Assembly (NCBI GenBank): GCA_030537675.1
Contig: JAUNVL010000001.1
Coordinates: 7,656-71,655, forward strand
From: Propionibacteriaceae bacterium
GTDB lineage: Bacteria > Actinomycetota > Actinomycetes > Propionibacteriales > Propionibacteriaceae
DNA: 64,000 bases
Direction: 5' to 3'
This document shows, piece after piece, positions 8,095-58,592 of this stretch. Each line of letters opens with the position of its first letter. Within the stretch, counting starts at the first letter, position 1. Both the position numbers and the translations under genes were made by a program. Below the pieces are notes generated by a model. The model saw nothing but the letters and a program-made list of their open reading frames with translations, was not told the DNA's origin and did no database searches.

Positions 8095-8114
8095 GTGGCG
8101 AGAATTCTCGCCAC
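8095..8114 (-). terminator. Perfect 20-bp palindrome GTGGCGAGAATTCTCGCCAC 3 nt after the SEC-C gene stop
   Basis: The sequence is fully self-complementary, with centre AATT. The stop codon TAG (minus strand) is at 8118-8120. It could be a terminator stem or a protein-binding site. Confidence 0.45.
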
Positions 8115-8117
8115 CCA

Positions 8118-10178: not shown

Positions 10179-10236
10179 GTCCGCGACACTACCGGCGCAG
10201 CGGTGGGTCGGCGACGTGCGGGGAGGCAGTCCATGG

Positions 10237-10264
10237 CCGGGAACTCCGTCGCTGGAGTTCCCGG
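10237..10264 (-). terminator. Hairpin terminator after the His-rich secreted protein gene
   Basis: CCGGGAACTCC (10237-10247) pairs perfectly with GGAGTTCCCGG (10254-10264) across a 6-nt loop. It lies 54 nt downstream of the stop at 10318. Confidence 0.5.
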
Positions 10265-10317
10265 GATGAAAAGGAGGACCGGTGGATGTTGACCGCAAGT
10301 CCTCGTCGTACTGCTCC

Positions 10318-21336: not shown

Positions 21337-21451
21337 TCCAGCGCTCAGGGAAGAATCCGGGTGTGGCAGGGGTCGGTGTGCCTTGCCCATGGACTCCTCG
21401 GGCACCACACTGGAGGAAACAAGACACTCAACGAAACGAAGGAGAGACTCC

Positions 21452-26591: not shown

Positions 26592-26838
26592 CCGGGACTC
26601 CGATGAGGAAGCGGATGGTTCTCGTCGACCGTCCCTTGGTGGATGCCCCATCTCGTCCCCTTTTTCCTCATGAGCCCCACGACGACGCCCGCATCCACCA
26701 GCGTAGGCCGCTTGATTGCTCCCGGGGAGATCGGTGGCCCGGGAGATGGGGGAGCGGTCAGATGCGAGTCACGGCCGCGGGAGAGCCGGGCGGACATGGC
26801 AGCAAAATGTCACACGTGTCGGGTGCCCGCTGCGCTGA

Positions 26839-32691: not shown

Positions 32692-32878
32692 CGTCCACCT
32701 TCTTTCCGTACCGGAAAGACTACTGCGCCTTCGGACACGGTCGGACGAATGCGTCTGCGGGGCCGGCTGCGCATCCAAAACCACCCCGACGGGTGAGACC
32801 TTCTGAACCGCTTCGTCCCTATCGTTTTTGGTGGGCCATGGCGGTCCACAACGCATTTCACAAGGCATGGAGGAGACG

Positions 32879-35263: not shown

Positions 35264-36022
35264 TCATTGGTATGCCTTGGGATGGACGGGGACGTCGTGC
35301 GCGTCCAGCCACGCGATGATGGCCGCGCGCTCCTGAAGCACGCGATCGCTGACGTCGTCGTTGCTGAGGATGAAATAGCGGTCCTGAAAGGTGCTGCCGT
35401 CCTTCCTCACGGAGTGCGGATTGGCCCCCAGCTCCAACAGCCGCAGTACCAGCGCCCCGGATTGGGTGCTGGCGCAGGTGTCGATGGGGCGCCCCCGATT
35501 CGGGTCCGTCCAGTCCACGTCGGCCCCGGCGTCCACCAGCAGGGTGAACACCGGCTCGTCATTCTGGAGACAGGCGATTTTCAGGGCGGTGGTGCCGGTG
35601 GCTGCGCGCACCACGTCCGGGTCGCTCCCCGCCTGCAACAGCAGTTCGACCATGGCAGGCTGCGTCCAGGCGGCGGAGTGGAGTGGAGGCTCACCGCCCT
35701 TGCCCGGCAGGTCTGGCGTGGCCCCCATCTCCAGAAGGCCCGCCATGCCATCGAGGCTGCGAGCAGTTGCCGACCATTGGAGCATGGTGATCCCATCAAT
35801 CCCGATGGCATTCGGGTTCGCGCCGTCCCGGATGAGCCGGGAAATCTCTGCCTTCTCACCTGCGGCTACAGCCTTCGCCAGGGTCAGGTCCTGCGAGCTG
35901 GTCCACCACTGGCTGGGATCGGGCCCTGAGAAGATCGTGGAGCAGCCGGACAGAGCCAGCGACAACCCGATGAGCACGACCACCAAACGGAGCATGCCCG
36001 CAGTCAAGCACGTGGAACGCAC
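35264..36022 (-). CDS. Ankyrin-repeat lipoprotein
   Basis: Lipobox LSLALSGC-S. At least four ANK-like repeats are present (G.T.L..A......V..LL..GA.P motifs, for example GGEPPLHSAAWTQPAMVELLLQAGSDPD). Confidence 0.75.
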   Translation of the reverse strand: MRSTCLTAGMLRLVVVLIGLSLALSGCSTIFSGPDPSQWWTSSQDLTLAKAVAAGEKAEISRLIRDGANPNAIGIDGITMLQWSATARSLDGMAGLLEMGATPDLPGKGGEPPLHSAAWTQPAMVELLLQAGSDPDVVRAATGTTALKIACLQNDEPVFTLLVDAGADVDWTDPNRGRPIDTCASTQSGALVLRLLELGANPHSVRKDGSTFQDRYFILSNDDVSDRVLQERAAIIAWLDAHDVPVHPKAYQ

Positions 36023-36150: not shown

Positions 36151-37512
36151 TCAGAAGGGCGGGTTGGTGAAGCGGCTGTAGTGGCCCTGGAAGAGGGCGT
36201 CAATCTTGCCGGTCTCGCCGTTGCGGTGCTTGGCGATGTGGAAGGCGGCCTGGCCACGTTCCTCGTCGGTGGGGCTCTGTGTGTACATCTCGGGGCGGTG
36301 GATCATCAGGACGATGTCGGCATCCTGTTCCAGCGAACCGGATTCTCGCAGGTCGGAAAGCTGCGGGATGCCGTCCTTGCGCTGCTCCGTGTTGCGGCTG
36401 AGCTGGCTGAGCGCGATCACGGGGATCTCGAGTTCCTTGGCCAACAGCTTGATCTGACGGGAGAATTCGGAGACCTCGAGCTGGCGGGACTCCACCTTCT
36501 TGCCGGAGCTCATCAGCTGGATGTAGTCGATGGCGATGACCTGCAGGTCATGGCGCTGCTTCAGGCGGCGCGCCTTGGCCCGGATCTCCATCATGGTGAG
36601 GTTGGGGGAGTCATCGATGAACAGCGGCTTCTTCTCCATCATCACGGACTTGTCCGTGATGCGCTGCCAGTCGGATTCGTCCATCCTGCCGCCGCGGATC
36701 TTGTTCAGCGGGATGGAGGCCTCAGCGCTCAGAAGTTTCATGACGATCTCCGTACGGCTCATCTCCAGAGAGAAGAAGGCGGCGCACAGGTCGTGCTGGA
36801 GGGCAGCGGAGCGGCAGATGTCGAGCGCAAAGGTGGATTTTCCCACGCCCGGACGGGCGGCGACGATGATCATCTGTCCGGCATGCAGTCCGTTGGTGAT
36901 CCGGTCGAGTTCGGCGAACCCGGTGGGCACTCCTGAGATGGCATCGCCGGAGTTGCTGATGGCCTCCATCTCGTCCCACGTCGGCTGGAGGAGTTCGGCC
37001 AGTGACTTGTAGTCCTCCGAGGATTTGTTCTCCGTGACCTCGTACAGGGTCTGCTGGGCCTCGTCGACGATTTTGTCCACTTCACCCTGGCCCATGTACC
37101 CCAGCTGCGCGATGCGGATGGAGGCATTGACGAGCCGGCGGAGGACCGCCTTCTCCCGCACCAACTCGGCGTAGTAGATGGCGTTGGCAGCGATGGAGAC
37201 GCTGGCGAGCAAATCGTGCAGGTAGACCGGGCCGCCGACCTTGCCCAGTTCTCCCACCTTGCCCAGTTCCCCGGCGACGGTGATGGGGTCCGCGGGCTCA
37301 CCGCGTCCGTAGAGGGTGACGATGGCGTCGTAGATTGTTTCGTGGTTGGGGCGGTAGAAGTCGTGACCGCGCAGCGTCTCGACGACGTCGGAGATGGCGT
37401 CCTTGCTCATCATCATCGCGCCGAGCACGCTCTGTTCGGCTGCAAGGTCCTGTGGGGGAGTGCGATCGAGTTCACTGATGCTCGCCTCGGACAGGTATGC
37501 CTCCGCAGCCAC
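36151..37512 (-). CDS. dnaB: Replicative DNA helicase DnaB (no intein)
   Basis: Motifs PQDLAAEQSVLGAMM, Walker A AARPGVGKST, Walker B IAIDYIQLM and SQLSR. The start is set to GTG 37512, with GAGGGGGA 6 nt upstream. The track ORF extends to 37623. Confidence 0.9.
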   Translation of the reverse strand: MAAEAYLSEASISELDRTPPQDLAAEQSVLGAMMMSKDAISDVVETLRGHDFYRPNHETIYDAIVTLYGRGEPADPITVAGELGKVGELGKVGGPVYLHDLLASVSIAANAIYYAELVREKAVLRRLVNASIRIAQLGYMGQGEVDKIVDEAQQTLYEVTENKSSEDYKSLAELLQPTWDEMEAISNSGDAISGVPTGFAELDRITNGLHAGQMIIVAARPGVGKSTFALDICRSAALQHDLCAAFFSLEMSRTEIVMKLLSAEASIPLNKIRGGRMDESDWQRITDKSVMMEKKPLFIDDSPNLTMMEIRAKARRLKQRHDLQVIAIDYIQLMSSGKKVESRQLEVSEFSRQIKLLAKELEIPVIALSQLSRNTEQRKDGIPQLSDLRESGSLEQDADIVLMIHRPEMYTQSPTDEERGQAAFHIAKHRNGETGKIDALFQGHYSRFTNPPF

Positions 37513-37628
37513 GAGTTCCCCCTCTCGACGACCACCCGTCGGCGTGTGGTCGAGGGCAAGGCTATCCCAGGGGACCCCACATTTTGTCGGCGCGGCAGGG
37601 GCCCCTCCGGTGCTGCTGTGCACAACAT

Positions 37629-44738: not shown

Positions 44739-45377
44739 CTAGGGTGCCGGCTGCAGTGAGCCCGGAGTGAGCGTGCACTGCGAGGGTGCGGCTGGGATGC
44801 GGAGTTCGAGATCCATCAGCCAGCCCTTGGCAGCAGTGAACCGGGGACCGCCTCCCGGCATGTCGGAGACCACCACTGGCTCGCCCCCCGGGTTGGTCAC
44901 CAGTTCGGACGCGGCGGGGAAGCCATGACGCGCCAGAGCAACGTTGAAGACAGACAGGAAAAGGTCCATGTCCACCGCGGCCACGTCGAGGCCCTCCTTG
45001 CTGCTGTCGCGCAGTGCGACGATGCAGATTCCGTCGCCATCATGGTCCACAAAAGTTCTCTCGACGTAGACGACGCTCTCCAACCCCCACCACTGCGTCG
45101 GGCTCCCCAACGCCTCTTCGGCGGCGATTCGTGCGTCGGCAAACAGATCGGCGTACTGCTGAGCCATCTGTTCGGGGTCCCGAGAGACCGTGGCCGGCGA
45201 TGGCGACCACGTGGGAAAGTTGCCGGAGATGGTGGGTGTACCGGAGGCGGTCGGAACAGAAGGGGTGGTGTCCTGCGACTCGATGGTTGTCGCCGGGCCC
45301 TCGGCGGGGCCACCTGGGGAGCAGCCCACGAGCAGCAGGAGCGCCAGGGCGCCGACCGCCGCCAGTCGGTGCGTCAC
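44739..45377 (-). CDS. Lipoprotein, hypothetical; its C-terminal domain is paralogous to the upstream 125-aa protein
   Basis: Lipobox LLLLVGC-S. The GTG start at 45377 overlaps the upstream stop (GTGA at 45374-45377). It shares the motif block S-x-x-N-x-x-L-x-x-HGF-(x)-P...GE..V.V.D with ORF 45374..45751. Confidence 0.7.
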   Translation of the reverse strand: MTHRLAAVGALALLLLVGCSPGGPAEGPATTIESQDTTPSVPTASGTPTISGNFPTWSPSPATVSRDPEQMAQQYADLFADARIAAEEALGSPTQWWGLESVVYVERTFVDHDGDGICIVALRDSSKEGLDVAAVDMDLFLSVFNVALARHGFPAASELVTNPGGEPVVVSDMPGGGPRFTAAKGWLMDLELRIPAAPSQCTLTPGSLQPAP

Positions 45378-45751
45378 GCTGGTACCGCAGCCACGTGGGC
45401 CTCGGCCGCTCCGGACAACGAGATCGTGAGCTGCGCCTGGTGGCCGTCAGCCACCGTGACGTGCCACTCGCCCCATTCCTCCTCGATGAAGGAGTCGATG
45501 GGATGGAAACCATGGTGTTCGAGGACTTCGTTGACGGCGCTCCTCAACCCGGCACTGTCGACGGTCTCCAGGGCAACGCCGCTCCCGAAAATTGGACCCA
45601 CGCGGACCAGGCGCGGGTCATCCGTGCGAGCGGCGTCCGCCCTGTCACGCCACAACAGGGGGCCGATCTGGGTCTCGAGTGCTCGCTGCAGTGAGTCGAG
45701 CAATGACCCGTAGCGCATCGAAAGCTGGCGCACTCCGTCGTCGCCGTTCAT
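45374..45751 (-). CDS. Small cytoplasmic hypothetical protein (125 aa), candidate immunity/partner protein of the calpain-like protein
   Basis: In-frame part of ORF 45374..45904. ATG 45751 is preceded by AAGGAGGGG and lies 20 nt after the protease gene stop. There is no signal peptide. Confidence 0.6.
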   Translation of the reverse strand: MNGDDGVRQLSMRYGSLLDSLQRALETQIGPLLWRDRADAARTDDPRLVRVGPIFGSGVALETVDSAGLRSAVNEVLEHHGFHPIDSFIEEEWGEWHVTVADGHQAQLTISLSGAAEAHVAAVPA

Positions 45752-45770: not shown

Positions 45771-46973
45771 TCACTGGGCCGGCCACTGCATGACACCGTT
45801 GGTCCACCGGGTGTACTCGTCCTCGGTGAGTTCCACGATGTGTGGATGGGAGGCCGGGCCATGGGGATTCTGCAACCTGATCTTTCCATCATCGGTGAAG
45901 CCAATCACCGAGTAGGCATGGTTACCGAAGATTTTCTTCTCCGCGAGGAAGTCCTTCGGGAGGGGGTCAGGTTGGGGGTCCGGGGCATTGGTGGTGGCCA
46001 CCATCACAGCTCCGGGCGGTTGGGTGGACAGCGTGCTGCGAATGCTGTCGAAGCTGGTGTTGGAGGACTGCGTCTCCGTGTAGTTCTTCCCCAACACGAT
46101 CTTGCCGGTCAGGGGGAAGTTGCTCGATTCGATCTCCGGGTGGAGTTGGCGCATGGCCTGGACGTAGATCGACAGGTAGTTGGGTTCCTTGGTCCACGCA
46201 TTCCTGGGGTCAGGGTCCTGCAGGTGGCGTGGGTCAACGGTCGTGCGTTGTGCTGCTCCCGTCTCTGGGTCGTACATCGTCACCTCGTAGGTCTGGCTGA
46301 CTGGATCCCACACCACGTGCTGGCGGATGAACTCGGGGTTGGAGCGGCCGAGGCTCATGAGCGGCGACAGGAATGCGCAGAGGGGAACCGAACCCTGTGC
46401 GCTGTCGTCCACCTGGTCCAGGATGCCGTCGTCCGAGAAGTCGAGAGGGCCGAGGTCGAATGTCTGGATGTCCAGTCCCAGGGCGACAGCCAGGGCTGAA
46501 GCCGCACTCATGTCCACCACGGTGGCGACGTGCAACAACTGACGCACGTTGGCGCTGATGGCACGCGCCAGCGCCAGGCGTCGAAGCAGCACTTTCGGGT
46601 CCAGCAACGCGGTCTCGGGGATGGGGAGGGCGCGGCCGGAATCCAGCACCCTGATGCGGTTCGCATCCGCGATGGCCAGCATCTGCAGTAGTTGGCCTCG
46701 CAGTTGTTCCATCCGCGCGGCCGCATTCGTCAGGACGTCAGCGAGCTTCGGCAGAACCTTGGCCAGGCGCTCCACCTCCTGTGCCTGTTCCTCGCATCGA
46801 GCGCCGATCATGTCCCCGATCGTGTCCCGCCAAGCATCCTTGATGGACACTCCGGTGCGGCGGAGTGATTCCGCCTGATCGCTGCCCTGCGAGGCTGCGT
46901 ACCGGAAGGCAGCCGCGCGGGATTCCCACGGCCCTGCGTCAAAGGTCGACAGCTTCTCGACGTCGATGCTCAC
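45771..46973 (-). CDS. Two-domain protein: helical N-terminal domain (~185 aa, no signal peptide) fused to a calpain-like (peptidase C2, papain-fold) cysteine protease domain
   Basis: Calpain-type motifs are QGSVPLCAFLSPLMSL (Cys199, codon 46379-46377), GNHAYSVIGF (His352, 45920-45918) and IRLQNPHG (Asn369, 45869-45867). The GTG start at 46973 overlaps the upstream stop (GTGA). Confidence 0.8.
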   Translation of the reverse strand: MSIDVEKLSTFDAGPWESRAAAFRYAASQGSDQAESLRRTGVSIKDAWRDTIGDMIGARCEEQAQEVERLAKVLPKLADVLTNAAARMEQLRGQLLQMLAIADANRIRVLDSGRALPIPETALLDPKVLLRRLALARAISANVRQLLHVATVVDMSAASALAVALGLDIQTFDLGPLDFSDDGILDQVDDSAQGSVPLCAFLSPLMSLGRSNPEFIRQHVVWDPVSQTYEVTMYDPETGAAQRTTVDPRHLQDPDPRNAWTKEPNYLSIYVQAMRQLHPEIESSNFPLTGKIVLGKNYTETQSSNTSFDSIRSTLSTQPPGAVMVATTNAPDPQPDPLPKDFLAEKKIFGNHAYSVIGFTDDGKIRLQNPHGPASHPHIVELTEDEYTRWTNGVMQWPAQ

Positions 46974-47272
46974 ACGCCTTCTCCACCTGTGAAGTTGAAT
47001 CCTTCAATGGCGTCGGTGTTCCTCGCCTCCACCTTCTGGATGGAGGTGGCGGAAGCGTGCATGGACTCGGCGAGCGCGGCGACGTTGCCGCCGAGCGTTG
47101 CGAACTGGGCGAGGAGGTGGGCATCAAGTTGTCCGAGGACGGCGTCCACCTCGAAGTCCCCCGACGCTGCACCGACACTGAAATCAGACCCGAGCCGCCG
47201 CACTGCGTCAGCCACCGAGCCGACCCCTTCGGCCAGCATGTGGACCTCGCTGGGTGTCACATCAAGTCCCAT
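46970..47272 (-). CDS. 100-aa all-helical, Trp/Tyr/Cys-free protein resembling EspC/DUF2580 or WXG100-superfamily type VII secretion substrates
   Basis: ATG 47272 is preceded by AGGAGGTG. The sequence MGLDVTPSEVHMLAEGVGSVADAV...ALAESMHASATSIQKVEARNTDAI has the size and style of EspC-like proteins. It is translationally coupled to the calpain-like gene. Family assignment is tentative. Confidence 0.6.
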   Translation of the reverse strand: MGLDVTPSEVHMLAEGVGSVADAVRRLGSDFSVGAASGDFEVDAVLGQLDAHLLAQFATLGGNVAALAESMHASATSIQKVEARNTDAIEGFNFTGGEGV

Positions 47273-47442: not shown

Positions 47443-50400
47443 GTGCAGCAGCGACGCAGCGCATCCTGGGGTTGGTTCACAGCCGGCCTCGCCACCATCC
47501 TGGCAGTGGGGGCGAGTCTCGTCCCCGTCTCCACCGCGAGCGCCGCATCCGTGGTGTTCGAGGCGGAGGCCGAAACCAACATCCGCACCGGGCAGGCTCG
47601 GGTCCTCGACCGTCCCGAGGCCTCCGGCGGCAAGGCCATCGGCTATGTCGGGGGAGGGAACGGGACGATCGGCATCAAGGTCGACGTCATCGATCCCGCC
47701 CGTACCTCACTCACACTGAAGTGGATCTCCGGTGAGAACCGGGACATCCGCTACACCTGCAACGGCGGCGCGGAAACGCTCCTCGACCTTCCGGTGGGGC
47801 CGAACTGGAGCACTCCGCAGAGCACACCCCTGACCTGCGCCGGCCTGACGGCGGGTGAGAACACCATCACGTTGTGGAACACCACTCCGGCACCAGACAT
47901 TGACGCTCTCGTGGTCTCCACCTCACAGCAGGTGATCTTCGAGGCCGAGGATCCGTCCAACGACCTCACCGGCCAGGCCCGGGTCCAGGAGCGCGCAGGC
48001 GCATCGGGCGGCAAGACGGTCGGCTACATCGGTGGCGGCAACGGCACGCTGGGCGTGCGCGTCAGCATCGAGGCAGCAGGCCAGAAAGAGTTTGAACTCC
48101 AATACATCTCGGGGGAGAAGCGGGACATCCGCTACCAGTGCCCCGGTGCCTCGGAATCCACGCTGCTGAACCTCCCGGCAGGTCCCAACTGGAGCACCCC
48201 CGTGACACACGAGTTCAGCTGCTACATCCCGCAGGGACTGCACGTCATCACCCTGTACAACACCGGTCCCGCCCCTGATGTGGACCTGCTCCGCATGGTC
48301 GGTGGCATCGACGACGGTGGCGGCCCCGTCACCACCCCCACACCGACGCAGGGTTACCCCACCGAGGATCCGTGGGCCGATGACCCCGCCAATGCGAAGC
48401 CCGCTTCCGCCCAACAGGACCCCGACTGGATGCTGATCGACGACTACTCGTCCGAGTTCAGCGGTACCGACGTGGAGGGCAAATTCAGCCGATTCCCCGA
48501 CCAGTGGGGTTGGCGTGCCGAATGGCGCTGGGACGACGAGGCCGCGGTGGTGCAGGACGGCAATCTGGAGCTGAAGCAGAGCTATGACCCCACCAACAAC
48601 TACAACGTGGTGCCCAAAGGCTGGCAGACGGCGCTCGTTGACCTGAACCTGCAGAATGCCAACACCGACACCGTCACCACTTATGCCGCCCATACGGGCA
48701 ATACGGGTCTGCGGCACACGTACTTCAATCAGTACGGCACACGGACCCAGCAGACCTTCACCGGCCTGGCAGCCGGCACGCACCAATTCTCCGCCTACGC
48801 GAAGTCCGAGGGCACCGAGGGCACGGTGGCGCTCGTCGCGAAGAACTGCACGGCCGCAGGCTCGGAACAACGCGAAGAGATTCCACGCAGCAATGGCGGC
48901 TGGAAGCAGTACAGCCTGGTGGTCGACGTCGTCGCCGGCAGCACGTGCGTCGTCGCACTGGAGTCGACGGGCAAGACCTTCTCCGACGTCGCCATGTTCG
49001 ACGATGCGGTGTTCACAGCCCCCGGAGTCACCACGAACCGCCTGGCCAACCCAGGGTTCGAGACGCTGGACACCACCCACAACAAGTCGGGCGGCGTCCA
49101 CATGACGGAGCCGGTGAAGTACGGCTACTTCGAGGTGCGGGCCAAGTCCGGCACGCCGTTCCCGGGTACATGTCTCGCCTTCTGGCTGGACGGCCGGGAA
49201 GGCGACTACTCCACGGAGCTGGACATCGTCGAACTCGGCGAGAAGCCCGGCAACCCCAACGCGGTCGACTTCGCCGCACACCGCTGGCCGTCCAAGGCAC
49301 TGGGCCCCAACCACCAGTCCAACGGCGGCGACGTCTACCAGGCGCCCTGGGACCCGTCAGCCGACTTCCACACCTACGGCTTCGAATGGGAGCCCGGTGT
49401 GCAGCGCTGGTTCGTCGACGGCGTACTCCGCGCCGAACGCAAGGACCCCGTCTTCGACGCGGCCGAGCAGTACATGATCCTCTCGCTGGGACTGCGTGCC
49501 CCCTACGTCAACAACCCGGCGGCCTACCCGAACGCCTACGACAATGCGAAGCCGTCGCAGTTCGACTACGTGCGCGTCTGGAAGCCCCGTGCATTCGAGG
49601 TCCCCAGCACCGTGGTGGGTGACTACCAGGCGTCCTTCGTCTACTCCGACGGCTGGACCGCTTCCGGCGGCAACCGCACCAGCGGCACCGCAGGTGCCAC
49701 CTGGAAGTTGCGCTTCGACGGTGACGGCGTCGACGTCGTTGCCCCGGCGGGTGCCGGGCAGGGACGCGTTGCCTACTCCATCGACGGCGGCCAGCCGATC
49801 GTCGTGGATCATGGCGCTGCCACCTCCTCGACCGTGTGGTCGAGCCCGGTGGTTCCTCGCGGCAAGCACGTGGTCACAGCAAGGGTGGTCTCCGGCGCGG
49901 TGGGTGTCTCGTCGGTGATTGTCCGCAACACGCTCGATGACTCCACGCCGTCACCGTCACCGTCGCAGTCGCCGGCACCGACGGTGACCGTGACCACGAC
50001 GGCCACTGCCGAGCCGAGCATCACCTACGCCCCCACCGTCACCGCTACCAGCAGCGCCACCGCGACGGCCACGTCCAGTACGACGGCCACCGCCACCAGC
50101 AGCGCCACCGCTACGGTCACCTCCACGGTCACCACCACCGCCAGCGCCACTGCCACGGCGACGGCCAATGTCACGGTCACCACGACGGTTACGGGATCCA
50201 CAACCCCCACCGTGACGACTGCGCCGGTTCCGCAGCCCGTCGACATCTACACGGCCCCCGGGATCCACGAGGTCAATGGTCGACGATGGTTCACGACGTG
50301 CGAAGCGTATTCGGCCACGTTCCGATGCACGACGCAGATCTGGTCCACCCAGATCAGCGAGGTCAACGGGACTTTCGTGTCCACCACCGGCTGGCACTTC

Positions 50401-50649
50401 AACAACCTGACCTATGTGGCGTCGCCACGCAGCCTGTGGGCGGGCAACCCCCTGGCCGTCACCGGATCGTGGACGGCCACCGATGGCCGTCGCTGGCGCA
50501 CCGAGTGCGACACGGCCGTCACCGGCGGCAACGGGTGTCGCAGCTGGGTCACCTCCCGCATCATCGAGAGCACTCGCCAGGCCGATGGCACCTACCGCCA
50601 CGCCTGGGTCACCAAGGAGGTGTTCAACAACATGGTCCGGTTCAGCTGA
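47443..50649 (+). CDS. Secreted multidomain GH16 glycoside hydrolase (two N-terminal CBM-like modules, split GH16 catalytic domain, further beta-sandwich module, Thr/Ala/Ser linker, Cys-containing C-terminal repeat domain)
   Basis: GTG 47443 is preceded by AGGAGG. Signal peptide ...LVPVSTASA-A. The GH16 catalytic motif ELDIVE is at 49216-49233, with flanking YGYFEVRAK, AFWL and FHTYGFEW. Confidence 0.85.
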   Translation: MQQRRSASWGWFTAGLATILAVGASLVPVSTASAASVVFEAEAETNIRTGQARVLDRPEASGGKAIGYVGGGNGTIGIKVDVIDPARTSLTLKWISGENRDIRYTCNGGAETLLDLPVGPNWSTPQSTPLTCAGLTAGENTITLWNTTPAPDIDALVVSTSQQVIFEAEDPSNDLTGQARVQERAGASGGKTVGYIGGGNGTLGVRVSIEAAGQKEFELQYISGEKRDIRYQCPGASESTLLNLPAGPNWSTPVTHEFSCYIPQGLHVITLYNTGPAPDVDLLRMVGGIDDGGGPVTTPTPTQGYPTEDPWADDPANAKPASAQQDPDWMLIDDYSSEFSGTDVEGKFSRFPDQWGWRAEWRWDDEAAVVQDGNLELKQSYDPTNNYNVVPKGWQTALVDLNLQNANTDTVTTYAAHTGNTGLRHTYFNQYGTRTQQTFTGLAAGTHQFSAYAKSEGTEGTVALVAKNCTAAGSEQREEIPRSNGGWKQYSLVVDVVAGSTCVVALESTGKTFSDVAMFDDAVFTAPGVTTNRLANPGFETLDTTHNKSGGVHMTEPVKYGYFEVRAKSGTPFPGTCLAFWLDGREGDYSTELDIVELGEKPGNPNAVDFAAHRWPSKALGPNHQSNGGDVYQAPWDPSADFHTYGFEWEPGVQRWFVDGVLRAERKDPVFDAAEQYMILSLGLRAPYVNNPAAYPNAYDNAKPSQFDYVRVWKPRAFEVPSTVVGDYQASFVYSDGWTASGGNRTSGTAGATWKLRFDGDGVDVVAPAGAGQGRVAYSIDGGQPIVVDHGAATSSTVWSSPVVPRGKHVVTARVVSGAVGVSSVIVRNTLDDSTPSPSPSQSPAPTVTVTTTATAEPSITYAPTVTATSSATATATSSTTATATSSATATVTSTVTTTASATATATANVTVTTTVTGSTTPTVTTAPVPQPVDIYTAPGIHEVNGRRWFTTCEAYSATFRCTTQIWSTQISEVNGTFVSTTGWHFNNLTYVASPRSLWAGNPLAVTGSWTATDGRRWRTECDTAVTGGNGCRSWVTSRIIESTRQADGTYRHAWVTKEVFNNMVRFS
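47551..48300 (+). repeat. Tandem duplication encoding two ~123-aa CBM6/35-like modules inside the GH16 gene
   Basis: Module 1 begins VVFEAEAETNIRTGQARVLDRPEASGGKAIGYVGGGNGTIGIKV...ENRDIRYTC...PVGPNWSTP. Module 2 begins VIFEAEDPSNDLTGQARVQERAGASGGKTVGYIGGGNGTLGVRV...EKRDIRYQC...PAGPNWSTP. Confidence 0.75.
49945..50235 (+). repeat. Low-complexity ACC/GCC-rich repeat DNA encoding a Thr/Ala/Ser/Pro linker
   Basis: Encodes PSPSPSQSPAPTVTVTTTATA...TATSSATATATSSTTATATSSATATVTSTVTTTASATATATANVTVTTTVTGSTTPTVTTAPVP. The motif GCCACCGC(C/T)ACCAGCAGCGCCACCGC recurs. Confidence 0.7.
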
Positions 50650-50865: not shown

Positions 50866-52461
50866 TCAGGACAGGCGGACCACGCGGTCGCACGCAGCGA
50901 TGAGCTCGGGATCGTGCGTGATGACCAGCGCCGCCCGCCCTTCGGCGGCGCGCCATACGTCGTGCATCAGGGCGCGCGCGGTGGCGGTGTCCAGGTGCTC
51001 CGTCGGCTCGTCGAGGATCAGCAGTTCCCGTTCGTCGGCCAGGACGCGTGCCAGCGCGAGACGTCGACGCTCGCCACCGGACAGCGTGGTGCCGGCCTCG
51101 CCGATCCGACGCTCCGGTGGCAGGTCCAACCCGGCCTCCACGAGTGCGGCCACCACCTGCTCGTCGGTGGCGTCCTTGTTGCCGATGCGCACGTTCTCGG
51201 CCACCGTCGTGGTGAAGATGTGGGCGTCCTGCGCGAGGTAGCCGACGCGGTTGGCGCGCCGCATGCTTCCCGCCAGCGGTGGGATCAGGCCCATGGCAGT
51301 GGCGGCAACGGTCGTCTTGCCGATGCCGGATGGGCCAACGAGCGCGACCCTCTCACCGGGATGGACGTGAAAATCCAGGTCACTCTGGACCACGACGCCG
51401 CCCGGCCAGCCGACGGCGACGCCGTCGAATTCGAGCCCGGGGGCGGGGTTATCGGAGGAGGTCACGTCGCCGGAGCCCACGGGCTCGGCGTCGAGGACGT
51501 CGATGATCCGCTCCAGCGCCGCGCGGGAACGGGTCCACGTCTGGGCAGCGGAGGTGAAGGCAGCAAAGACCTCGTGCAGGGCCAGGGGAGTCAGGACGAT
51601 GACGGCCAGGAGGCGGGGGTGCAGTTCCCCGGCAACCACGGCCGGACCGCCGATGGCCAGCGCGGCCACCACCGCGACGCCGGCAGCCACCACCTGACCT
51701 GCGGTGGCGATGCCGCGCACCCAGGCCGCGCGCGACTCCTGCCGCCGCAGGGCATCGTCGACGGCCAGCAGATCAGCCAGAACTGCATCCTGCGCCCCGT
51801 AGGCCACGAGGTCGCCGGTGGTGCGCGACAGTTCGCGCACGCCGTCGGCGAGTTTGCCGCGGGTGGGGACCGCATCGAGGTCTGCGGCACGGGAGGCGCG
51901 CTGCGCCAGCAACGGCACCATCACACCGGCGATGATCGCGGTGACGAGCAGAATCAGGGAGGAGGCCAGGTTGAACCGGGCAAGCATGAGCGTCGTGCCG
52001 ACGATCACCAGGGACGCCGCGAGGGCAGGGATCACCACGCGGACCACCAGATCCTGGACCGCTGCCACGTCCGCCACCACGCGGGTCAGCAGGTCACCGC
52101 GCCGCCGACCGATCAGCGTCGTGGCCGAGAGTTTGTCGTAGACGCGGATCCGCAGGCTCGACTGCATGCGCAGCGCCACGTCGTGGCCCACCAGACGCTC
52201 CACGTACCGGAAGACACCGCGCGAGATGCCGAAGAACCGGACGCCGACTGCGGCCGCCTGCAGGAAGAGCACGGGCGGCATCTCCGCTGCCCGGCTGATG
52301 AGCCAGGCGGAGAGACCAAGAAGCGCCACTGAGGCGCCGGATGCCATGGATGCCAGGAGCACGGCGAGGCTGAAGCGCCTCTTCCCCTGGGGGACGGTGG
52401 CCAGGAGTTCACCCACCAGGCGCACCGTGGCGTTCCCGGCGCGGGAGCTGCGACGACTCAT
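50866..52461 (-). CDS. cydC: Thiol reductant ABC exporter subunit CydC
   Basis: Fused TMD-NBD architecture with Walker A GPSGIGKTT, LSGGERRR and LILDEPTEHLD. It is the last gene of cydABDC, and its start overlaps the cydD stop (52458-52461). Confidence 0.85.
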   Translation of the reverse strand: MSRRSSRAGNATVRLVGELLATVPQGKRRFSLAVLLASMASGASVALLGLSAWLISRAAEMPPVLFLQAAAVGVRFFGISRGVFRYVERLVGHDVALRMQSSLRIRVYDKLSATTLIGRRRGDLLTRVVADVAAVQDLVVRVVIPALAASLVIVGTTLMLARFNLASSLILLVTAIIAGVMVPLLAQRASRAADLDAVPTRGKLADGVRELSRTTGDLVAYGAQDAVLADLLAVDDALRRQESRAAWVRGIATAGQVVAAGVAVVAALAIGGPAVVAGELHPRLLAVIVLTPLALHEVFAAFTSAAQTWTRSRAALERIIDVLDAEPVGSGDVTSSDNPAPGLEFDGVAVGWPGGVVVQSDLDFHVHPGERVALVGPSGIGKTTVAATAMGLIPPLAGSMRRANRVGYLAQDAHIFTTTVAENVRIGNKDATDEQVVAALVEAGLDLPPERRIGEAGTTLSGGERRRLALARVLADERELLILDEPTEHLDTATARALMHDVWRAAEGRAALVITHDPELIAACDRVVRLS

Positions 52462-54077
52462 GCGAGCACCCCCAACTCGACGACACGGTCGGCCGCAGCC
52501 ATCACGGCGGGCCGGTGGGTCACGATGACGGCGCCCACACCGGAAGCACGCACGGCATCAACGGCGGCCGCCTCGGTGCTGGAGTCGAGACCCGCAGTGG
52601 GCTCGTCCAGCACGAGGAGTCGTGCGCCACCGAGGCGGATCCGGAGCAGGGCGCGGGCCAGTGCCACGCGGCGGCGTTCCCCTGCAGACAGCCCTTCGCC
52701 GTCATCCCCCACACTTTTGGTGCCGTCGAAGTCGGCGCCCGCATCGTGCAGCGCGGCCTCGACGTCAGCCGGGGTGGCATCGGGGTGCCCGAGCAGGACG
52801 TTGAGGGCGACGGTGCCGTTCAACATGCCGGGCTCCTGACCCACCCACGCCAACTCGTTGCGCCACGCGCGCTCATCGAGATCCTTGAGGTCCTGCCCAT
52901 CCACAGTGACGCGGCCGCCGTCGGGGTGCAGGAATCCCATGAGCATTGCGAGAGCGGTCGACTTGCCGCCCCCGGAGGTGCCGCGGATCGCCAGCACCTC
53001 GCCGGGTTCGATGGCGAGGTCGAAGTGCTCCAGCGCGGGGGAGTCGCTGCCCGGATAGGTGTAGGCGACGTCCTCGAAGCGGATGCGCAGATCGGCTGGC
53101 ACGGGGGCGGTCCCGGTGGACACGGATCCCGAATCGATGAGGCGGAAGGCCGCGTCGGCCGCGGCCACGCCGTCGGCGGAGTCGTGGAAGTGGACGCCCA
53201 CCTGGCGCACCGGGAGGAACGCCTCGGGTGCCAGGACGAGGACGAACAGCGCCGCCTCGAAGCCGATGTCACCGTAGACCAGCCGGAAACCGACGGTCAC
53301 CGCCACCACTGCAACGGACAGGCTGGCCAGCAATTCCAGGGCCAGGGCGGAGAGGAACGACACGTACAGCACGCGCATGGTGGCGCCCCGGTACTGCTCC
53401 TCACCCAACTCGACGCCGCGACGCTGGGCCCGGGCTCGGGCGAACGCCTGCAGGGTGGGGAGTCCCTCGATGAGGTCTGCAAAGTGGTTGGCGAGCCGGT
53501 CGGCCACCGCGTAGCTCTTCGCCGTCGCGGCTTCCGTGGTCCAGCCGATCAGCGCCATGAACAAGGGGATCAGTGGCAGCGTGAAGGCCACGATGATGGC
53601 CGACTGCCAGTCGGTCAACAGGATCGCACCGCCCACGAGGAAGGGGACGGTGGCGGCCAGACCCAGCTGCGGCAGGTATTTGGAGAAGTAGCCGTCCAGA
53701 TCATCGAGCCCGGACGTCACCACCTTGACCATGGAGGCCGAGGAGGTGGCGGAGTCGCGCGGACGGGAGAGCCGCGCCGTGAGGATGTCTCGACGCAGCG
53801 TCGACTTCACGCTCGCAGCGGAGCGGTGGGCGATGGTCTCGTTCAGCCAGGACAGCAACGCTCTCGACGCGAACACGGCGGCGAGGCCACCCAGGAGCAC
53901 GCCCCAGTTACCCGGGAGCGAGCGCTCGGTGAAGACGTGGCTGATGCCGCGGGCGATGAGACCGGACTGCGCAATCAGCAGGACCGAGGTGACCAGCCCA
54001 ACGACGACGGAGGCGACCAGGTAAGTCCTGGTCGCCCCCGCACGTTTCAACAATCGTGGATCAATGGGACCTGCCAT
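52458..54077 (-). CDS. cydD: Thiol reductant ABC exporter subunit CydD
   Basis: Fused TMD-NBD architecture with Walker A GTSGGGKST, LSAGERRR and LVLDEPTAGLD. It lies immediately downstream of cydB. Confidence 0.85.
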   Translation of the reverse strand: MAGPIDPRLLKRAGATRTYLVASVVVGLVTSVLLIAQSGLIARGISHVFTERSLPGNWGVLLGGLAAVFASRALLSWLNETIAHRSAASVKSTLRRDILTARLSRPRDSATSSASMVKVVTSGLDDLDGYFSKYLPQLGLAATVPFLVGGAILLTDWQSAIIVAFTLPLIPLFMALIGWTTEAATAKSYAVADRLANHFADLIEGLPTLQAFARARAQRRGVELGEEQYRGATMRVLYVSFLSALALELLASLSVAVVAVTVGFRLVYGDIGFEAALFVLVLAPEAFLPVRQVGVHFHDSADGVAAADAAFRLIDSGSVSTGTAPVPADLRIRFEDVAYTYPGSDSPALEHFDLAIEPGEVLAIRGTSGGGKSTALAMLMGFLHPDGGRVTVDGQDLKDLDERAWRNELAWVGQEPGMLNGTVALNVLLGHPDATPADVEAALHDAGADFDGTKSVGDDGEGLSAGERRRVALARALLRIRLGGARLLVLDEPTAGLDSSTEAAAVDAVRASGVGAVIVTHRPAVMAAADRVVELGVLA

Positions 54078-54083
54078 AAGGGG

Positions 54084-55151
54084 TCAGGCCACCGCCTCGA
54101 CATCGTCGGGAATGTTCTTGGTACCGATCCGGCGGCGGAACACCCAGTAGGACCAGCTCTGGTAGGCGATCACGATGGGCACGAAGATGATCGCGGCCCA
54201 CGTCATGATCGTCAGCGTGGTGGGCGACGACGCTGCGGTGATGATGTTCAGGTGCTCGGTCACCGCGACGCCAGCGTCCTGCGCGAAGCCGAGGTTGCCA
54301 TACATCCTGAGGAAGATCCCACTGAACAGGGCGAGGATGGCGACGCCCCCGAGGATGAAGCCCCAGCCCTCGCGGTCACGGCCGGTCATGGTCACGGAAG
54401 CGGCCAGTGCGACGATTGCCAGAATCCCCGCCACCCACGCGGCGATGGTGAAATCGCCGAAGTTGGACGTGGCCGGCCAGAAGATGTTCTGGAGAACGAC
54501 GAACCCGGTGACGAGTGCGACGCTCACCCATCCGAAGGTACGGACCAGCTTGCGGGCATTGTCATGAATCAGGCCGTGGGTCTTCAGGGTGATGAAGGTG
54601 GCGCCGTGGGTGAGGAACAGGGCCAGCAGCATCACACCGCCCAGCAGGGCGAATGGGCCGAACAGTCCGAAGAAGGTGCCGTTGAACAGCAGGCCGTCAT
54701 TCGGCAGGCCGATGACGAAGTTGGCGAAGCCGACTCCCAGCACCAGCGTGGGAAGGAAGGAGCCGATGATGATGAACCAGTCCATCATCGCGCGCCACTT
54801 GGCCTCGGGACGCTTGGCGCGGTACTCAAAGGCGACACCACGAAGGATGAGGCCCACGAGCATCAGCAGCAGCGGCAGATAGAGGGCCGAGAACAGCGAG
54901 GCGTACCATCCCGGGAACGCGGCGAACATGGCCCCGCCCGCAGTCAGGAGCCACACTTCGTTGCCGTCCCAGACGGGACCGATGGTGTTGATCAGTACGC
55001 GGCGCTTCTTGTCGTTGTTCCCACCGAGGATGGGCAGCAGCATGCCGACGCCGAAGTCGAAGCCTTCAAGGAAGAAGAACCCCAACCACAGGACGACGAT
55101 CAGCATGTACCAGACGATGGCGAGTGTTGGCACGGTTTCGAGCAGCATCAT
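54084..55151 (-). CDS. cydB: Cytochrome bd ubiquinol/menaquinol oxidase subunit II
   Basis: 355 aa and polytopic, with typical CydB segments WLGFFFLEGFDFGVGML and GPVWDGNEVWL. Confidence 0.9.
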   Translation of the reverse strand: MMLLETVPTLAIVWYMLIVVLWLGFFFLEGFDFGVGMLLPILGGNNDKKRRVLINTIGPVWDGNEVWLLTAGGAMFAAFPGWYASLFSALYLPLLLMLVGLILRGVAFEYRAKRPEAKWRAMMDWFIIIGSFLPTLVLGVGFANFVIGLPNDGLLFNGTFFGLFGPFALLGGVMLLALFLTHGATFITLKTHGLIHDNARKLVRTFGWVSVALVTGFVVLQNIFWPATSNFGDFTIAAWVAGILAIVALAASVTMTGRDREGWGFILGGVAILALFSGIFLRMYGNLGFAQDAGVAVTEHLNIITAASSPTTLTIMTWAAIIFVPIVIAYQSWSYWVFRRRIGTKNIPDDVEAVA

Positions 55152-55170
55152 GAAAAGTTCCTTCTCACTC

Positions 55171-56676
55171 TCAGTACGCGAAGGACAGGGGAGCGTCCGC
55201 GTCCGTGTCGTCGTCGATGGAGACCTCGTGGACGTCGGGGAGCCCCTTCTTCACGTAGTAGAGGAAGAGGCCAACCTCGATCACCGCCAGCACGCCGTAG
55301 AGCAGCGTGTAGACGATCATGGAAATCAGCACGGACATGGCGCTGACGCTGGCCGAGACTCCGGCAGCCGTCGGCATCACGCCTGCGACGAGCCAGGGTT
55401 GGCGGCCCATCTCGGTGAAGATCCAGCCGAAGGAGATGGCGAACAGCGGAAGCAGTGGCAGGGCAAACATGGCGGGCGTCCAGATCAGGTCCCAGACCTT
55501 GCCCTCGGGCGGCAACTTCTCCTTGCGGAGCAGCCACAGCAACGCCGCCCCCAGCAGGGTGCCAGCCATGCCGAGGCCGATCATCAGCCGGAAGGTCCAG
55601 AAGGACATGAAGACGTTGGGTGCCGGGTCCACGCCGGGGTAGTTCGTGGCCAGTTGTTCGGCGAACTCCTGCTGGATACGGGTCTGCGAGCCGTCGTTCT
55701 GCAGGAAGCCCTCCTCGGCGAACTGCTCGCGAAGGTTGTCGACGCCCTGAACGGTTTCCTCACCCGAGATCAAGGTGAGGAGCCCCGGCACCTTGATGGA
55801 GAAGATCTCCTTGGTTGCGTGCAGGTCACCGATGACCAGGAGCCGCATGGCTGCGTTGGTCTCGGTCTTGAACAAGCCCTCGGCCGCAGCCATCTTCATG
55901 GGCTGGACCTGCGTCATGATCCTGCCCTGCAGGTCGCCGGAGACGATGGTCAACACGGAGGCGACGATGAGCACCCAGGCGCCCATCTTCACGGCGAAGC
56001 GGTGGGCAGCCACAGCCTCGGGGTCGCGGAGATCGCCCTCGCGGCGCAGCTTCATGAGCCACCAGCCGGACACGCCCGCCATGAGTCCGCCAGCCGTCAT
56101 GAACGCGGCGGTGATGACGTGGGGGAACGTGACGAGGAAGACGGGGTTCAGGAGAACGTCAATGAATCCCTGTATGCCGTCCAGTTCGGCGCGTCCGTTG
56201 CGGAACGTGGTGCCCACGGGGTTCTGCATCCACGAGTTCGCGGCCAGGATGAACACTGACGACAGGAGGGTGCCGAACGCCACCATCCAGATGGTCAGCA
56301 GGTGAATCTTCTTGGGCAGCCTGTGCCAACCGAAGATCCACAGTCCGAGGAACGTGGATTCAAGGAAGAAGGCCAGCAGGGCCTCGAGCGCCAGCGGGGC
56401 GCCGAAGACGTCCCCCACGAAGCGCGAGTACTCGGACCAGTTCATGCCGAACTGGAACTCCTGCACGATGCCTGTGACAACGCCCAGGGCGAAGTTGATC
56501 AGGAGCAGCTTGCCGAAGAACTTGGTGAGCTGCAGGTACTTCGCGTGACCGGTTTTGTACCAGATGGTCTGAAGTACGGCCACCATCATCGCCAGGGCGA
56601 TGGTGATGGGCACGAAGAGAAAGTGGTAGACGGTGGTGATACCGAACTGCCACCGACCGAGGGTTACGGAGTCCAT
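55171..56676 (-). CDS. cydA: Cytochrome bd ubiquinol/menaquinol oxidase subunit I
   Basis: N-terminus LGRWQFGITTVYHFLFVPITI. The Q-loop region and GWIFTEMGRQPW motif are present. 501 aa. Confidence 0.9.
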   Translation of the reverse strand: MDSVTLGRWQFGITTVYHFLFVPITIALAMMVAVLQTIWYKTGHAKYLQLTKFFGKLLLINFALGVVTGIVQEFQFGMNWSEYSRFVGDVFGAPLALEALLAFFLESTFLGLWIFGWHRLPKKIHLLTIWMVAFGTLLSSVFILAANSWMQNPVGTTFRNGRAELDGIQGFIDVLLNPVFLVTFPHVITAAFMTAGGLMAGVSGWWLMKLRREGDLRDPEAVAAHRFAVKMGAWVLIVASVLTIVSGDLQGRIMTQVQPMKMAAAEGLFKTETNAAMRLLVIGDLHATKEIFSIKVPGLLTLISGEETVQGVDNLREQFAEEGFLQNDGSQTRIQQEFAEQLATNYPGVDPAPNVFMSFWTFRLMIGLGMAGTLLGAALLWLLRKEKLPPEGKVWDLIWTPAMFALPLLPLFAISFGWIFTEMGRQPWLVAGVMPTAAGVSASVSAMSVLISMIVYTLLYGVLAVIEVGLFLYYVKKGLPDVHEVSIDDDTDADAPLSFAY

Positions 56677-56766
56677 GGAGAGATTCTACTACCGGGCGTC
56701 GTTGATTCCAACTTGGAAACACCCTGTCGCAGCCCGTGCGGGAACGCACGTCATATGATGTCGCAC

Positions 56767-57123
56767 ATGGCAACCCGTGGACCTCTGGAGCAGACAGTGA
56801 TGGAACTGCTGTGGGCGACGCCGGATGCCCGCAGCGTGGCTGATGTGCTCGAGGAACTCAACAAGGAGCGGGACCTTGCCTACACCACGGTCATGACCGT
56901 CCTTGATCGACTCGCCAAGAAGGGCATGGTGACGCGCGAGCGGGTGGAGCGTGCCTGGCGCTATCTGCCCGCGGAGTCGCAGGACGTCGTCGTGGCCCGC
57001 GACCTCGTGGAAACGCTCGAGGGCGTGCCTGAGACCGTTCGGCGTCACGCCCTCCGACGGTTCTGTGACTCACTGCCAGAGGCCGAGCGACTGGCTCTTC
57101 TGAAGGCTGATTCCGCCACCTGA
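56767..57123 (+). CDS. BlaI/MecI/CopY-family winged-helix transcriptional repressor (orphan, no BlaR1-type sensor adjacent)
   Basis: In-frame 3-prime part of ORF 56302..57123. Motif block GPLEQTVMELLW...AYTTVMTVLDRLAKKGMVTRERVERAWRY. Start candidates are ATG 56755, 56758 and 56767. Confidence 0.8.
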   Translation: MATRGPLEQTVMELLWATPDARSVADVLEELNKERDLAYTTVMTVLDRLAKKGMVTRERVERAWRYLPAESQDVVVARDLVETLEGVPETVRRHALRRFCDSLPEAERLALLKADSAT

Positions 57124-57231
57124 GCGGACCTCGGCCATGGGATTCCGCGGTTTCTGATCCTCAACTCACCCCGGTAGGCGCTGTGACGGCCCGGAGAACC
57201 AGGTTGACAACGAAAAATCGCGTCGCGGGTG

Positions 57232-58320
57232 TCAGCCGGTGTAGTCGGGTCGCTCGGCGAGCAGTTCTTTCTTCTGTGTGATTGCCGCGTCGAGTTCAGC
57301 GGCCCAGGCTTCCCGGCTGTCGGTTGCCGTGCGCTGGGCCGTCTGGTCGTCAACGCCCGGAAAGGCCGCCACCTCCTGACGCACCTCAAAACTCTCGTTC
57401 ATGGCGGATTCCACGTTGTCCCGCGTCTCGGCCAACGACTGTGCCAGCGTCTGCGTCGACATCGACTCGGCCAGCTTCCGCCGCTCATCCGCGACGTCCC
57501 AGTCGGCCTTCGGGAACGTCAGCTGCATCTCACTGAGAGTCCGGGTGAGGATTTCGGTGATGGCGAGGCGTGAATACCACTTGTGGTCGGCCGGCAGCAC
57601 GTACCACGGGGCATGCTCCGTGCTCGTCCTCTCGAAGACCGCCTGGTACGCAGTCTGGAATTCCGGCCACTTGCTGCGGGTCTGCAGGTCACCGGTGGTG
57701 TACTTCCAGTGCTTGTCGGACCTGTCCAGCCTCTCCATGAGGCGCAGTCCCTGCTCGGCGTGCGAGACCATGAGGGCGAACTTGAGGACGATCGTCCCGC
57801 TGGCCACCAGGTCCGCCTCGAACTTGTTGATCTCCTCGTAGCGCTTCTGCCACTCCTCCTCGGGTACGAGTTCATTGACGCGCACCACCAGGACGTCCTC
57901 GTAGTGGGAGCGGTCGAACACGCCGATCCGGCCGGCCGGGGGTAGTGCCTTGCGGATCCGCCACAGGTAGTGGTGTTTCCGCTCCTCCGCGCTGGGTACG
58001 CCGAACGAATGCAGCGCGACCCCCTGTGGATCGACGTAACCCATCACGTGGCGGACGATGCCGCCCTTGCCGGCAGTGTCGAGGCCCTGGATCACGCACA
58101 GCACCGCACGTTTCCCACCCGTGCGCCCCTCGGCGAACAGCCGCTCCTGCAACTCCGGCAGCAACTCCGCCCGCGTGGCCATCAGGGACTTGGCGTCCTT
58201 CTTGCTGCCCTCCCAGCCCGGGGTGCCGTTGCGGTCCAGGGCGGCCAGCCTGAAACCCTCGCCGGCACGCAGTGCCTCACGGGGATCAACGGTCCACAGC
58301 TTCTTCGGATTCTTGCTCAC
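57232..58320 (-). CDS. ppk2: Polyphosphate kinase 2 family (polyphosphate:nucleotide phosphotransferase) with ~80-aa C-terminal extension
   Basis: Motifs VIQGLDTAGKGG (Walker A-like), YLWRIRKALPPAGRIGVFDRSHYEDV and WYVLPADHKW. GTG 58320 is preceded by GGAGAGGA. The track ORF extends to 58503. Confidence 0.85.
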   Translation of the reverse strand: MSKNPKKLWTVDPREALRAGEGFRLAALDRNGTPGWEGSKKDAKSLMATRAELLPELQERLFAEGRTGGKRAVLCVIQGLDTAGKGGIVRHVMGYVDPQGVALHSFGVPSAEERKHHYLWRIRKALPPAGRIGVFDRSHYEDVLVVRVNELVPEEEWQKRYEEINKFEADLVASGTIVLKFALMVSHAEQGLRLMERLDRSDKHWKYTTGDLQTRSKWPEFQTAYQAVFERTSTEHAPWYVLPADHKWYSRLAITEILTRTLSEMQLTFPKADWDVADERRKLAESMSTQTLAQSLAETRDNVESAMNESFEVRQEVAAFPGVDDQTAQRTATDSREAWAAELDAAITQKKELLAERPDYTG

Positions 58321-58592
58321 GAGTGGGTCCTCTCCAAGGGTTGACCCATTCTTCCAGCCGGGCAGTCCTCTCCATCGGCATTCTGCTGGATGACCACGCC
58401 GGGTGCCTGAACGAGGGCGCTCTCCCACAGGCGGGACACGGGCATGAAATGGCCACGTGAGACGAAGATGATATTTCGGCGCGTCGTGGTCCCGAGTCCG
58501 CATCGAAGGGCTACCCTATGGCCGACAGTCTTCCCCCTGTCGTCAGTTCAGGCCTGCACTCTCGTCGACGAGATGCCCGCCCCAGATCGTCA

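Follow-up and report, generated by a model that had tools for sequence, protein, structure and literature searches.

Bacterial homologues of the calpains (peptidase family C2) were catalogued by Rawlings in 2015, fusions of WXG100 and Peptidase_C2 domains in Herpetosiphon aurantiacus and Segniliparus rugosus among them, and a reviewer of that survey predicted that the WXG fusions were likely type VII secretion system (T7SS) toxins (PMC4631099). Bacterial calpain homologues were described there as rare, with Ca2+ sites absent from most of them and a selective role that the survey called unknown (PMC4631099). A second system of related layout is the EatA toxin of Mycobacterium abscessus, the export of which depends upon ESX-4 and which has Tap proteins as partners and a lipoprotein for immunity; similar loci occur across the Actinomycetota (PMC13444075). 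The locus described here lies in a 64,000-nucleotide stretch of DNA from a member of the Propionibacteriaceae (assembly GCA_030537675.1, contig JAUNVL010000001.1, forward-strand positions 7,656 to 71,655), referred to below, at its full length, as the window. It is a cassette of four tightly coupled genes on the minus strand, in the order A-B-C-D, of which the second encodes a divergent calpain-family cysteine protease fused to a predicted WXG100/PPE-like helical module. Gene B is read here as probably encoding a T7SS-exported protease toxin with a targeting partner (A) and two immunity proteins (C and D). To our knowledge, bacterial calpain homologues are almost entirely uncharacterised and no member of the gene B family has been tested biochemically.

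The gene B protein shares with the WXG100-C2 fusions of Rawlings its architecture, the absence of Ca2+ sites and a rare, patchy distribution. It differs from them in that its subfamily, comprising Propionibacteriaceae and metagenomic sequences, has diverged beyond the Pfam model, and in the possession of a partner gene and two paralogous downstream genes that were not described there. The WXG100-calpain architecture has thus been known since 2015 and the gene B protein is a new, divergent member, while no description was found of the four-gene cassette or of an inhibitor-like fold duplicated into cytosolic and lipoprotein forms. The locus was compared with EatA-TapA1/TapA2-EatI by gene order and locus grammar alone, not by sequence similarity of the proteins; in both, small helical tap-like genes lie upstream of a toxin, putative in the present case, that carries an N-terminal helical bundle, and a small gene for a lipoprotein with a proven or proposed immunity function lies downstream. 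The payload of EatA is a GH183 arabinanase, however, whereas that of gene B is a calpain-type protease, and there are two partners in M. abscessus against one here, where two paralogous immunity-like genes are present, one cytosolic and the other lipid-anchored.

More distant parallels are provided by the LXG toxins and Lap factors of the firmicute T7SSb, exemplified by TelC-TipC (PMC5555719, PMC6193138, PMC10801868), in which small helical partners encoded upstream bind a helical N-terminal domain; these proteins have a C-terminal toxin domain and use outward-facing, membrane-anchored immunity against a toxin acting outside the membrane. The gene B protein has no LXG domain match, belongs to an actinobacterial lineage (T7SSa type) and carries another payload. 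Cysteine protease payloads of secreted toxins, paired with a cognate protein inhibitor, are also found in Tox-PL1 and other papain-fold toxins with WXG N-termini (PMC3482391) and in Cpe1-Cpi1 of Escherichia coli (PMC12136450), but these belong to other papain-fold clades (C39-like in the case of Cpe1) and Cpe1 is delivered by the type VI secretion system or by contact-dependent inhibition. Several clades of papain-fold toxin that have WXG N-termini are entered in the 2012 catalogue of polymorphic toxins, and the first 300,000 characters of that article contain no mention of calpain (PMC3482391).

Gene B (45771..46973, minus strand, the strand being a point left unstated in an earlier note on this DNA) encodes a protein of 400 amino acids. 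Its GTG start codon overlaps the stop codon of the upstream open reading frame (ORF), gene A, in the sequence GTGA, and its GC content by codon position (GC1/2/3 = 0.65/0.45/0.81) is gene-like for a window of 65% GC. The three calpain-type motifs that the earlier note had reported were located in the translation, QGSVPLCAFLSPLMSL starting at residue 193, GNHAYSVIGF at residue 350 and IRLQNPHG at residue 365, which places the catalytic residues at Cys199, His352 and Asn369 as had been claimed. The corresponding codons lie on the minus strand at 46377-46379 (Cys199), 45918-45920 (His352) and 45867-45869 (Asn369), with that of Gln193 at 46395-46397. The gene B protein has the calpain arrangement, namely the order Cys, His, Asn and an oxyanion-hole Gln six residues ahead of the Cys. 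The motifs fall within a C-terminal domain comprising residues 173-400 (45774..46457, minus strand), which was recognised from profiles, a structural model and conserved residues; at approximately 228 residues it is larger than the ~210 first proposed.

A word-indexed homologue search with the gene B protein recovered only itself and a single metagenomic relative of 73% identity, while phmmer against the PDB returned designed coiled coils only, an NCBIfam scan nothing relevant and a search of the species genomes no related loci. For none of genes A to D was a Pfam family or a source name shown wherever one could have been. An exhaustive HMMER search that took the C-terminal domain as its query yielded 135 cluster representatives, mostly of about 400 amino acids with the domain at the C-terminus, of which 45, the gene B protein included, make up the family alignment. 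The consensus of these 45 sequences reads QGxxGDCxxLA ... HAYxV ... NPWGP, and the motif residues are conserved among the homologues as the calpain assignment predicts: Gln193 in 45/45, Cys199 in 43/45, His352 in 44/45 and Asn369 in 44/45. The Pfam Peptidase_C2 profile, named in the earlier note as a check, failed to recognise the gene B protein itself but connects it to the calpains through its relatives, 32 of the 45 matching PF00648 (best 2.8e-29). Four relatives (P0005, P0006, P0008 and P0012) illustrate the connection, being found by the profile of the gene B C-terminal domain at 3e-57 to 4e-33 and passing the PF00648 gathering score with 24.2-37.9 bits against 23.8.

The 45-member profile matches every solved calpain, the best match (E 2.2e-20) aligning profile positions 188-393 with residues 94-315 of m-calpain, and a profile built from the eight closest sequences ranks calpain-8 first in the PDB (E 1.7e-3). 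In BLASTP of the C-terminal 231 residues against the core fragment of human m-calpain, a single comparison, the His and Asn motifs align at E 0.002. Alignment with hmmalign pairs Q193, C199, H352 and N369 with Q99, C105, H262 and N286 of calpain.

With the 45-sequence alignment as input, AlphaFold returned a model of the gene B protein with a pLDDT of 94.8 and a pTM of 0.87; an alignment of two sequences gave a useless model (pLDDT 49.5). The top PDB match of the former in Foldseek is the Ca2+-bound calpain II protease core (1mdw_B; E 5.9e-4, prob 1.00 over 264 columns), cathepsin L and falcipain-3 ranking next, so that comparison of a predicted structure, a further check proposed at the outset, also leads to the calpains. 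Superposition on the calpain core is modest, with template modelling (TM) scores of 0.36/0.44, a root-mean-square deviation (rmsd) of 6.5 Å and an identity of ~14% in the structural alignment. As is usual for a papain fold, Cys199 stands in the model at the start of a helix (199-211), and beta strands either contain or precede His352 and Asn369; the C-terminal domain is predicted to adopt the two-subdomain core fold of a papain-type protease. Because the chain of significant matches is unbroken, the catalytic residues are conserved and the leading structural match is a calpain, the C-terminal 228 residues can be assigned with high confidence to the calpain (C2) branch of the papain-fold cysteine proteases.

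The eukaryotic calpain core (PC1-PC2; m-calpain 1KFU, 1MDW) has the same Gln-Cys-His-Asn arrangement and order, the motif contexts QGxxGDC, HAYSV and NPWG of the family consensus, and it is the best match by both profile and structure. The gene B protein differs from it in lacking the Ca2+ ligands and the C2L and EF-hand domains, and in its WXG100-like fusion. Among the positions that bind Ca2+ in calpain, E175 is replaced by P264, E292 by S375 and D299 falls in a gap; the position of D96 is occupied by Asp (D190) and is the only one of the Ca2+ sites retained. Judged from these residues, the protease domain is presumably calcium-independent.

The N-terminal part of the gene B protein (residues 1-172; 46458..46973, minus strand) contains three long helices in the model, at 14-47, 51-104 and 126-164, together with a beta hairpin, in agreement with the helical N-terminal module reported from the sequence. 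Foldseek matched this half to the EsxA/WXG100 structures 3o9o, 3gvm, 3zbh and 2vrz (prob 1.00, target TM 0.78-0.87), which superpose with an rmsd of 1.6-2.2 Å over ~90 residues, and PPE15 (5xfs_B) at prob 0.92. The hairpin turn carries W48 and G53, both invariant among the eight closest members. No signal peptide (no Sec signal) and no conserved transmembrane segment were detected in the gene B protein. The WXG100_2 family is matched by eight of the 45 relatives, the best at 6e-8. Among distant C2 homologues there are proteins with a curated T7SS_signal domain (4.5e-23), with ALTTAQ repeats, or with the C2 domain placed inside a protein of 4502 residues; no relation was found by hhalign between the N-terminal profile of the gene B family and the T7SS_signal domain of one of these (P0063; prob 1.7%). 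On the strength of the model, the N-terminal part is a helical bundle of WXG100/PPE-like fold, for which a function in T7SS targeting is proposed. The conception of a calpain-type core joined to a helical N-terminal module is accordingly upheld by profiles, model and conserved catalytic residues alike.

The four genes occur in the same order and with similar sizes in nine loci, comprising five metagenomic contigs, two Tessaracoccus genomes, one metagenome-assembled genome of the Propionibacteriaceae and the window. The order A-B-C-D holds across them while the identity of B falls to 29% and the flanking genes differ. In the window a cydC-cydD-cydB-cydA-small regulator-PPK2 block (50866-58503) is syntenic with positions 2-8650 of the Tessaracoccus massiliensis locus (L009), at 54-73% amino acid identity (65-73% for CydA/B/D/C), a result that puts the source organism near the Propionibacteriaceae. 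In T. massiliensis the cassette is found across the block from its position in the window, which indicates that it moves as a unit. It is proposed to be a self-contained toxin-immunity module found in varied chromosomal contexts in the Propionibacteriaceae and their relatives. Scanning the cassette for promoters and terminators yielded nothing informative. In one of the metagenomic loci (L002, 4512-8538) the cassette is followed directly by an operon of DUF4129, MoxR-type AAA and DUF58 genes; a link between MoxR-vWA modules and the regulation of Esx has been described for the Actinomycetales (PMC13622651).

Gene A (46970..47272, minus strand) encodes a small helical protein of 100 amino acids. 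It is preceded by an AGGAGG ribosome-binding site and its stop codon overlaps the start of gene B. Orthologues of 93-105 amino acids lie directly upstream of B in 9/9 full loci, and the partial locus L005 also has one (110 amino acids) in that position. No hydrophobic segment was found in the gene A protein. For the L002 orthologue there is a weak match to T7SS_ESX_EspC (PF10824; E 8e-4; 20.2 bits, the gathering score being 23.5; profile positions 5-94 of 100), and where the T7SS signal YxxxD/E would stand, A carries a conserved hydrophobic-xxx-[D/E] motif in 9/9 loci. A is proposed to be a targeting partner of the Tap/Lap/EspC kind. An A-like gene (E 2.9e-9) also precedes the gene for a T7SS_signal plus Peptidase_C2 protein in the distant locus L011. 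A targeting role for A is favoured because the L011 protein keeps the A-like gene but is followed by a different downstream protein.

Gene C (45374..45751, minus strand) begins with an ATG codon at 45751, 20 nucleotides after the gene B stop, and is preceded by a strong ribosome-binding site, AAGGAGG. It encodes a cytosolic protein of 125 amino acids in which no signal peptide was found, and orthologues of 120-129 amino acids are present in 9/9 loci. Gene D (44739..45377, minus strand), the GTG start of which overlaps the gene C stop, encodes a lipoprotein of 212 amino acids. In 9/9 loci D has a lipobox, which reads LVGC in the window, and behind it a linker of Pro/Thr/Ser, and the mature protein has exactly two conserved Cys residues in 9/9 loci, neither of which is present in C. 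C and mature D are paralogous: with a hidden Markov model built from D, the C proteins of 9/9 loci were recovered at 1e-9 to 9e-18. Neither C nor D gave a Pfam, NCBIfam or PDB match, the search of the PDB with a C/D profile was empty, and a search for C/D homologues returned nine proteins only, all unannotated. From context and paralogy the two are proposed to be an intracellular (C) and an extracytoplasmic (D) immunity protein or inhibitor.

Secretion chaperones and inhibitors can be told apart by what they accompany, since chaperones would track the N-terminal domain and inhibitors would track the protease domain. D-like lipoproteins adjoin distant C2 genes, encoded divergently, at L012 (1e-13), L015 (2e-10) and L017 (2e-6), where the C2 proteins have short, different WXG-type N-termini, no A gene is present and the gene order is another. 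As the D-like lipoproteins track the protease domain despite differing N-termini, an inhibitor or immunity role is favoured for the C/D family. They are not present at L011 or L013; at L011 the T7SS_signal-C2 protein is accompanied by a different, membrane-anchored downstream protein, and at L014 a lipoprotein from another small-protein family stands in place of the D-like protein. This second family was observed beside distant C2 genes at L012 (2872-3246), L013 (2923-3201), L017 (3608-3871) and L014 (259-687), with blastp values of 1e-24 and 2.5e-10 between members, and, being made up of cytosolic proteins and a single lipoprotein, may serve as another immunity family. More tentatively, C and D may represent a previously unannotated family of proteinaceous inhibitors of calpain-type proteases, split by duplication into cytosolic and disulphide-bonded lipoprotein forms, and the cassette the first interbacterial toxin system of the calpain family to use an actinobacterial T7SS for export; we consider this possible but short of an even chance.

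For the secretion, toxicity and substrate of the gene B protein we infer the following course. The A protein would pair with the N-terminal bundle of B and so make up a composite signal, directed at an ESX/type VII secretion system whose genes would lie elsewhere in the genome. C would hold the protease inactive in the cytoplasm of the producer, the protease, once exported, would cut proteins of neighbouring cells at the membrane or outside it, and membrane-anchored D, the disulphide-bearing paralogue of C, would shield sister cells. ESX-4 clusters are present in the Propionibacteriales (PMC4791881), as are Esx substrates adjoining WXG-like hairpin genes (PMC13622651). The whole chain, from T7SS export through targeting partner and protease toxin to two immunity proteins, is given a probability of about 60%.

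Several results weigh against this chain. T7SS core genes (EccC, EccB, EccD, mycosin, EsxAB) were found neither among the ~40 ORFs scanned in the window nor beside any related locus. The gene B protein reaches only E 2.9e-4 and 21.3 bits with WXG100_2 (PF25547), under the gathering score of 27, and 16.1 bits with Pfam WXG100 against a gathering score of 27.3; its hairpin turn reads W48-RDTI-G53 (W-x4-G), which is no strict WxG motif, and the Tyr of the YxxxD/E signal is present in A of only 2/9 loci. The protease half of the protein is better conserved than the helical half, and no member with the gene B type of N-terminus was found to carry another payload, in a search with a profile of 21 N-terminal domains that recovered one fragment only. 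At the catalytic end, the Pfam scan of the gene B protein gave no Peptidase_C2 match at E ≤ 1, as was also the case for the 73%-identical relative P0002, and the Trp of the calpain NPWG motif (W288) is replaced by H371, a His that four other members share.

The competitor that survives best, although unlikely, holds that the protein is an exported or surface protease serving the physiology or defence of the producer itself, for example in envelope processing or against epibionts or phage, in which case C and D would regulate or inhibit it and thereby set the timing of its action. A calpain-type domain with a secretion-style N-terminus fits this explanation equally. The four-gene set, protease domain included, is conserved whole and without swapped payloads, which is less typical of polymorphic toxins, and the window cassette is surrounded by housekeeping genes (cydABDC, PPK2, DnaB). 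There is also a precedent in AesB, an Esx substrate of the Actinomycetales/Propionibacteriales that limits a Saccharibacteria epibiont instead of killing competitors (PMC13622651). A physiological role of this kind accords poorly, however, with the patchy distribution of the family. When 185,579 species genomes were scanned for motifs conserved among the four closest members, only three loci were confirmed, and nearly all other family members found come from metagenome assemblies. Variation of the flanking genes between loci speaks against it too, and inhibitor-like proteins in two compartments follow the grammar of toxin-immunity loci (PMC13444075).

A calpain-like protease that stays in the cytoplasm without ever being secreted, its N-terminal helices and A serving only for oligomerisation or regulation, is improbable. 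Such a protein would account for the lack of T7SS genes in the window, for WXG100 scores below the Pfam threshold, for imperfect WxG and YxxxD/E motifs and for the cytosolic location of C. A lipoprotein paralogue of C with a conserved Cys pair, encoded in 9/9 loci and beside distant C2 genes, would however be sensible only for a protease that gets beyond the membrane. Since an outward-facing lipoprotein version is found in every locus, the protease is likely to reach the outside of the membrane. The superposition of the N-terminal domain on EsxA (target TM 0.8-0.87) and the existence of relatives with a curated T7SS_signal domain argue in the same direction.

A papain-fold domain with non-hydrolytic chemistry (deamidation, transglutamination or acyl transfer), or a pseudo-enzyme in this lineage, is similarly improbable. 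The residues around the nucleophile are altered, GDC-W of the calpains reading PLC-A in the gene B protein, and NPWG has become NPHG; in addition, a close relative weakly matches Gln_amidase, a papain-fold toxin family, at E 0.017. The triad is lost in two members of ~375-383 amino acids with degenerate catalytic sites, P0016 (Cys to Asp, His to Glu, Asn to His) and P0018 (Cys to Ser), which are possible pseudo-enzymes or decoys. The Gln, Cys, His and Asn are nevertheless intact in the gene B protein and in 43/45 members, and the nearest relatives in sequence and structure, calpains and then cathepsin L and falcipain, are all peptidases. A chance resemblance of three motifs in a protein unrelated to family C2 can be dismissed, for although the gene B protein alone matches neither Peptidase_C2 nor, by phmmer, any natural PDB entry, and hhalign of a two-sequence C-terminal profile with one calpain fragment is weak (prob 24%), the chain of matches to calpains, the conserved catalytic residues and the top structural match refute it.

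Among the other features of the window, a GH16 protein of 1068 amino acids is encoded on the plus strand at 47443-50649, divergently from the cassette; it has two internal N-terminal repeats of ~130 amino acids, matches CE2_N weakly and contains a long linker rich in Thr, Ala and Ser. A subtilase of 1261 amino acids (S8 plus VWA; 4107-7892, minus strand) was considered as a mycosin or T7SS-linked protease and rejected, being an S8+VWA protein without Ecc neighbours. It is adjoined by the gene for a protein of 775 amino acids with a SEC-C motif and TPR repeats (8118-10445, minus strand). The gene for the replicative helicase DnaB (36151-37623) stands directly beside that of an ankyrin-repeat protein of 252 amino acids (35264-36022, minus strand). 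Four ORFs of 363-638 amino acids with gene-like codon bias, at 22209-24125 and 25500-26651 on the minus strand and 32828-33964 and 21059-22150 on the plus strand, gave no Pfam match at E ≤ 1e-4. Neither tRNA genes nor Rfam families at the gathering score were found in the whole window (1-64000).

The Pfam Peptidase_C2 model misses the divergent branch that holds the gene B protein. A well-conserved subfamily of bacterial calpains now has an explicit context, consisting of a candidate secretion partner, the protease itself and a pair of inhibitor-like proteins, each in a compartment of its own. Type VII secretion toxins of actinobacteria are reportedly a field that opened experimentally only in 2026. 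If the proposed function is confirmed, a calpain-type protease would join the payloads of these toxins and a new family of calpain-inhibitor proteins would be added. Should the inhibitor reading of C and D prove true, the cassette would represent one protease toxin neutralised on both sides of the membrane, and would offer a simple bacterial model of calcium-free calpain inhibition.

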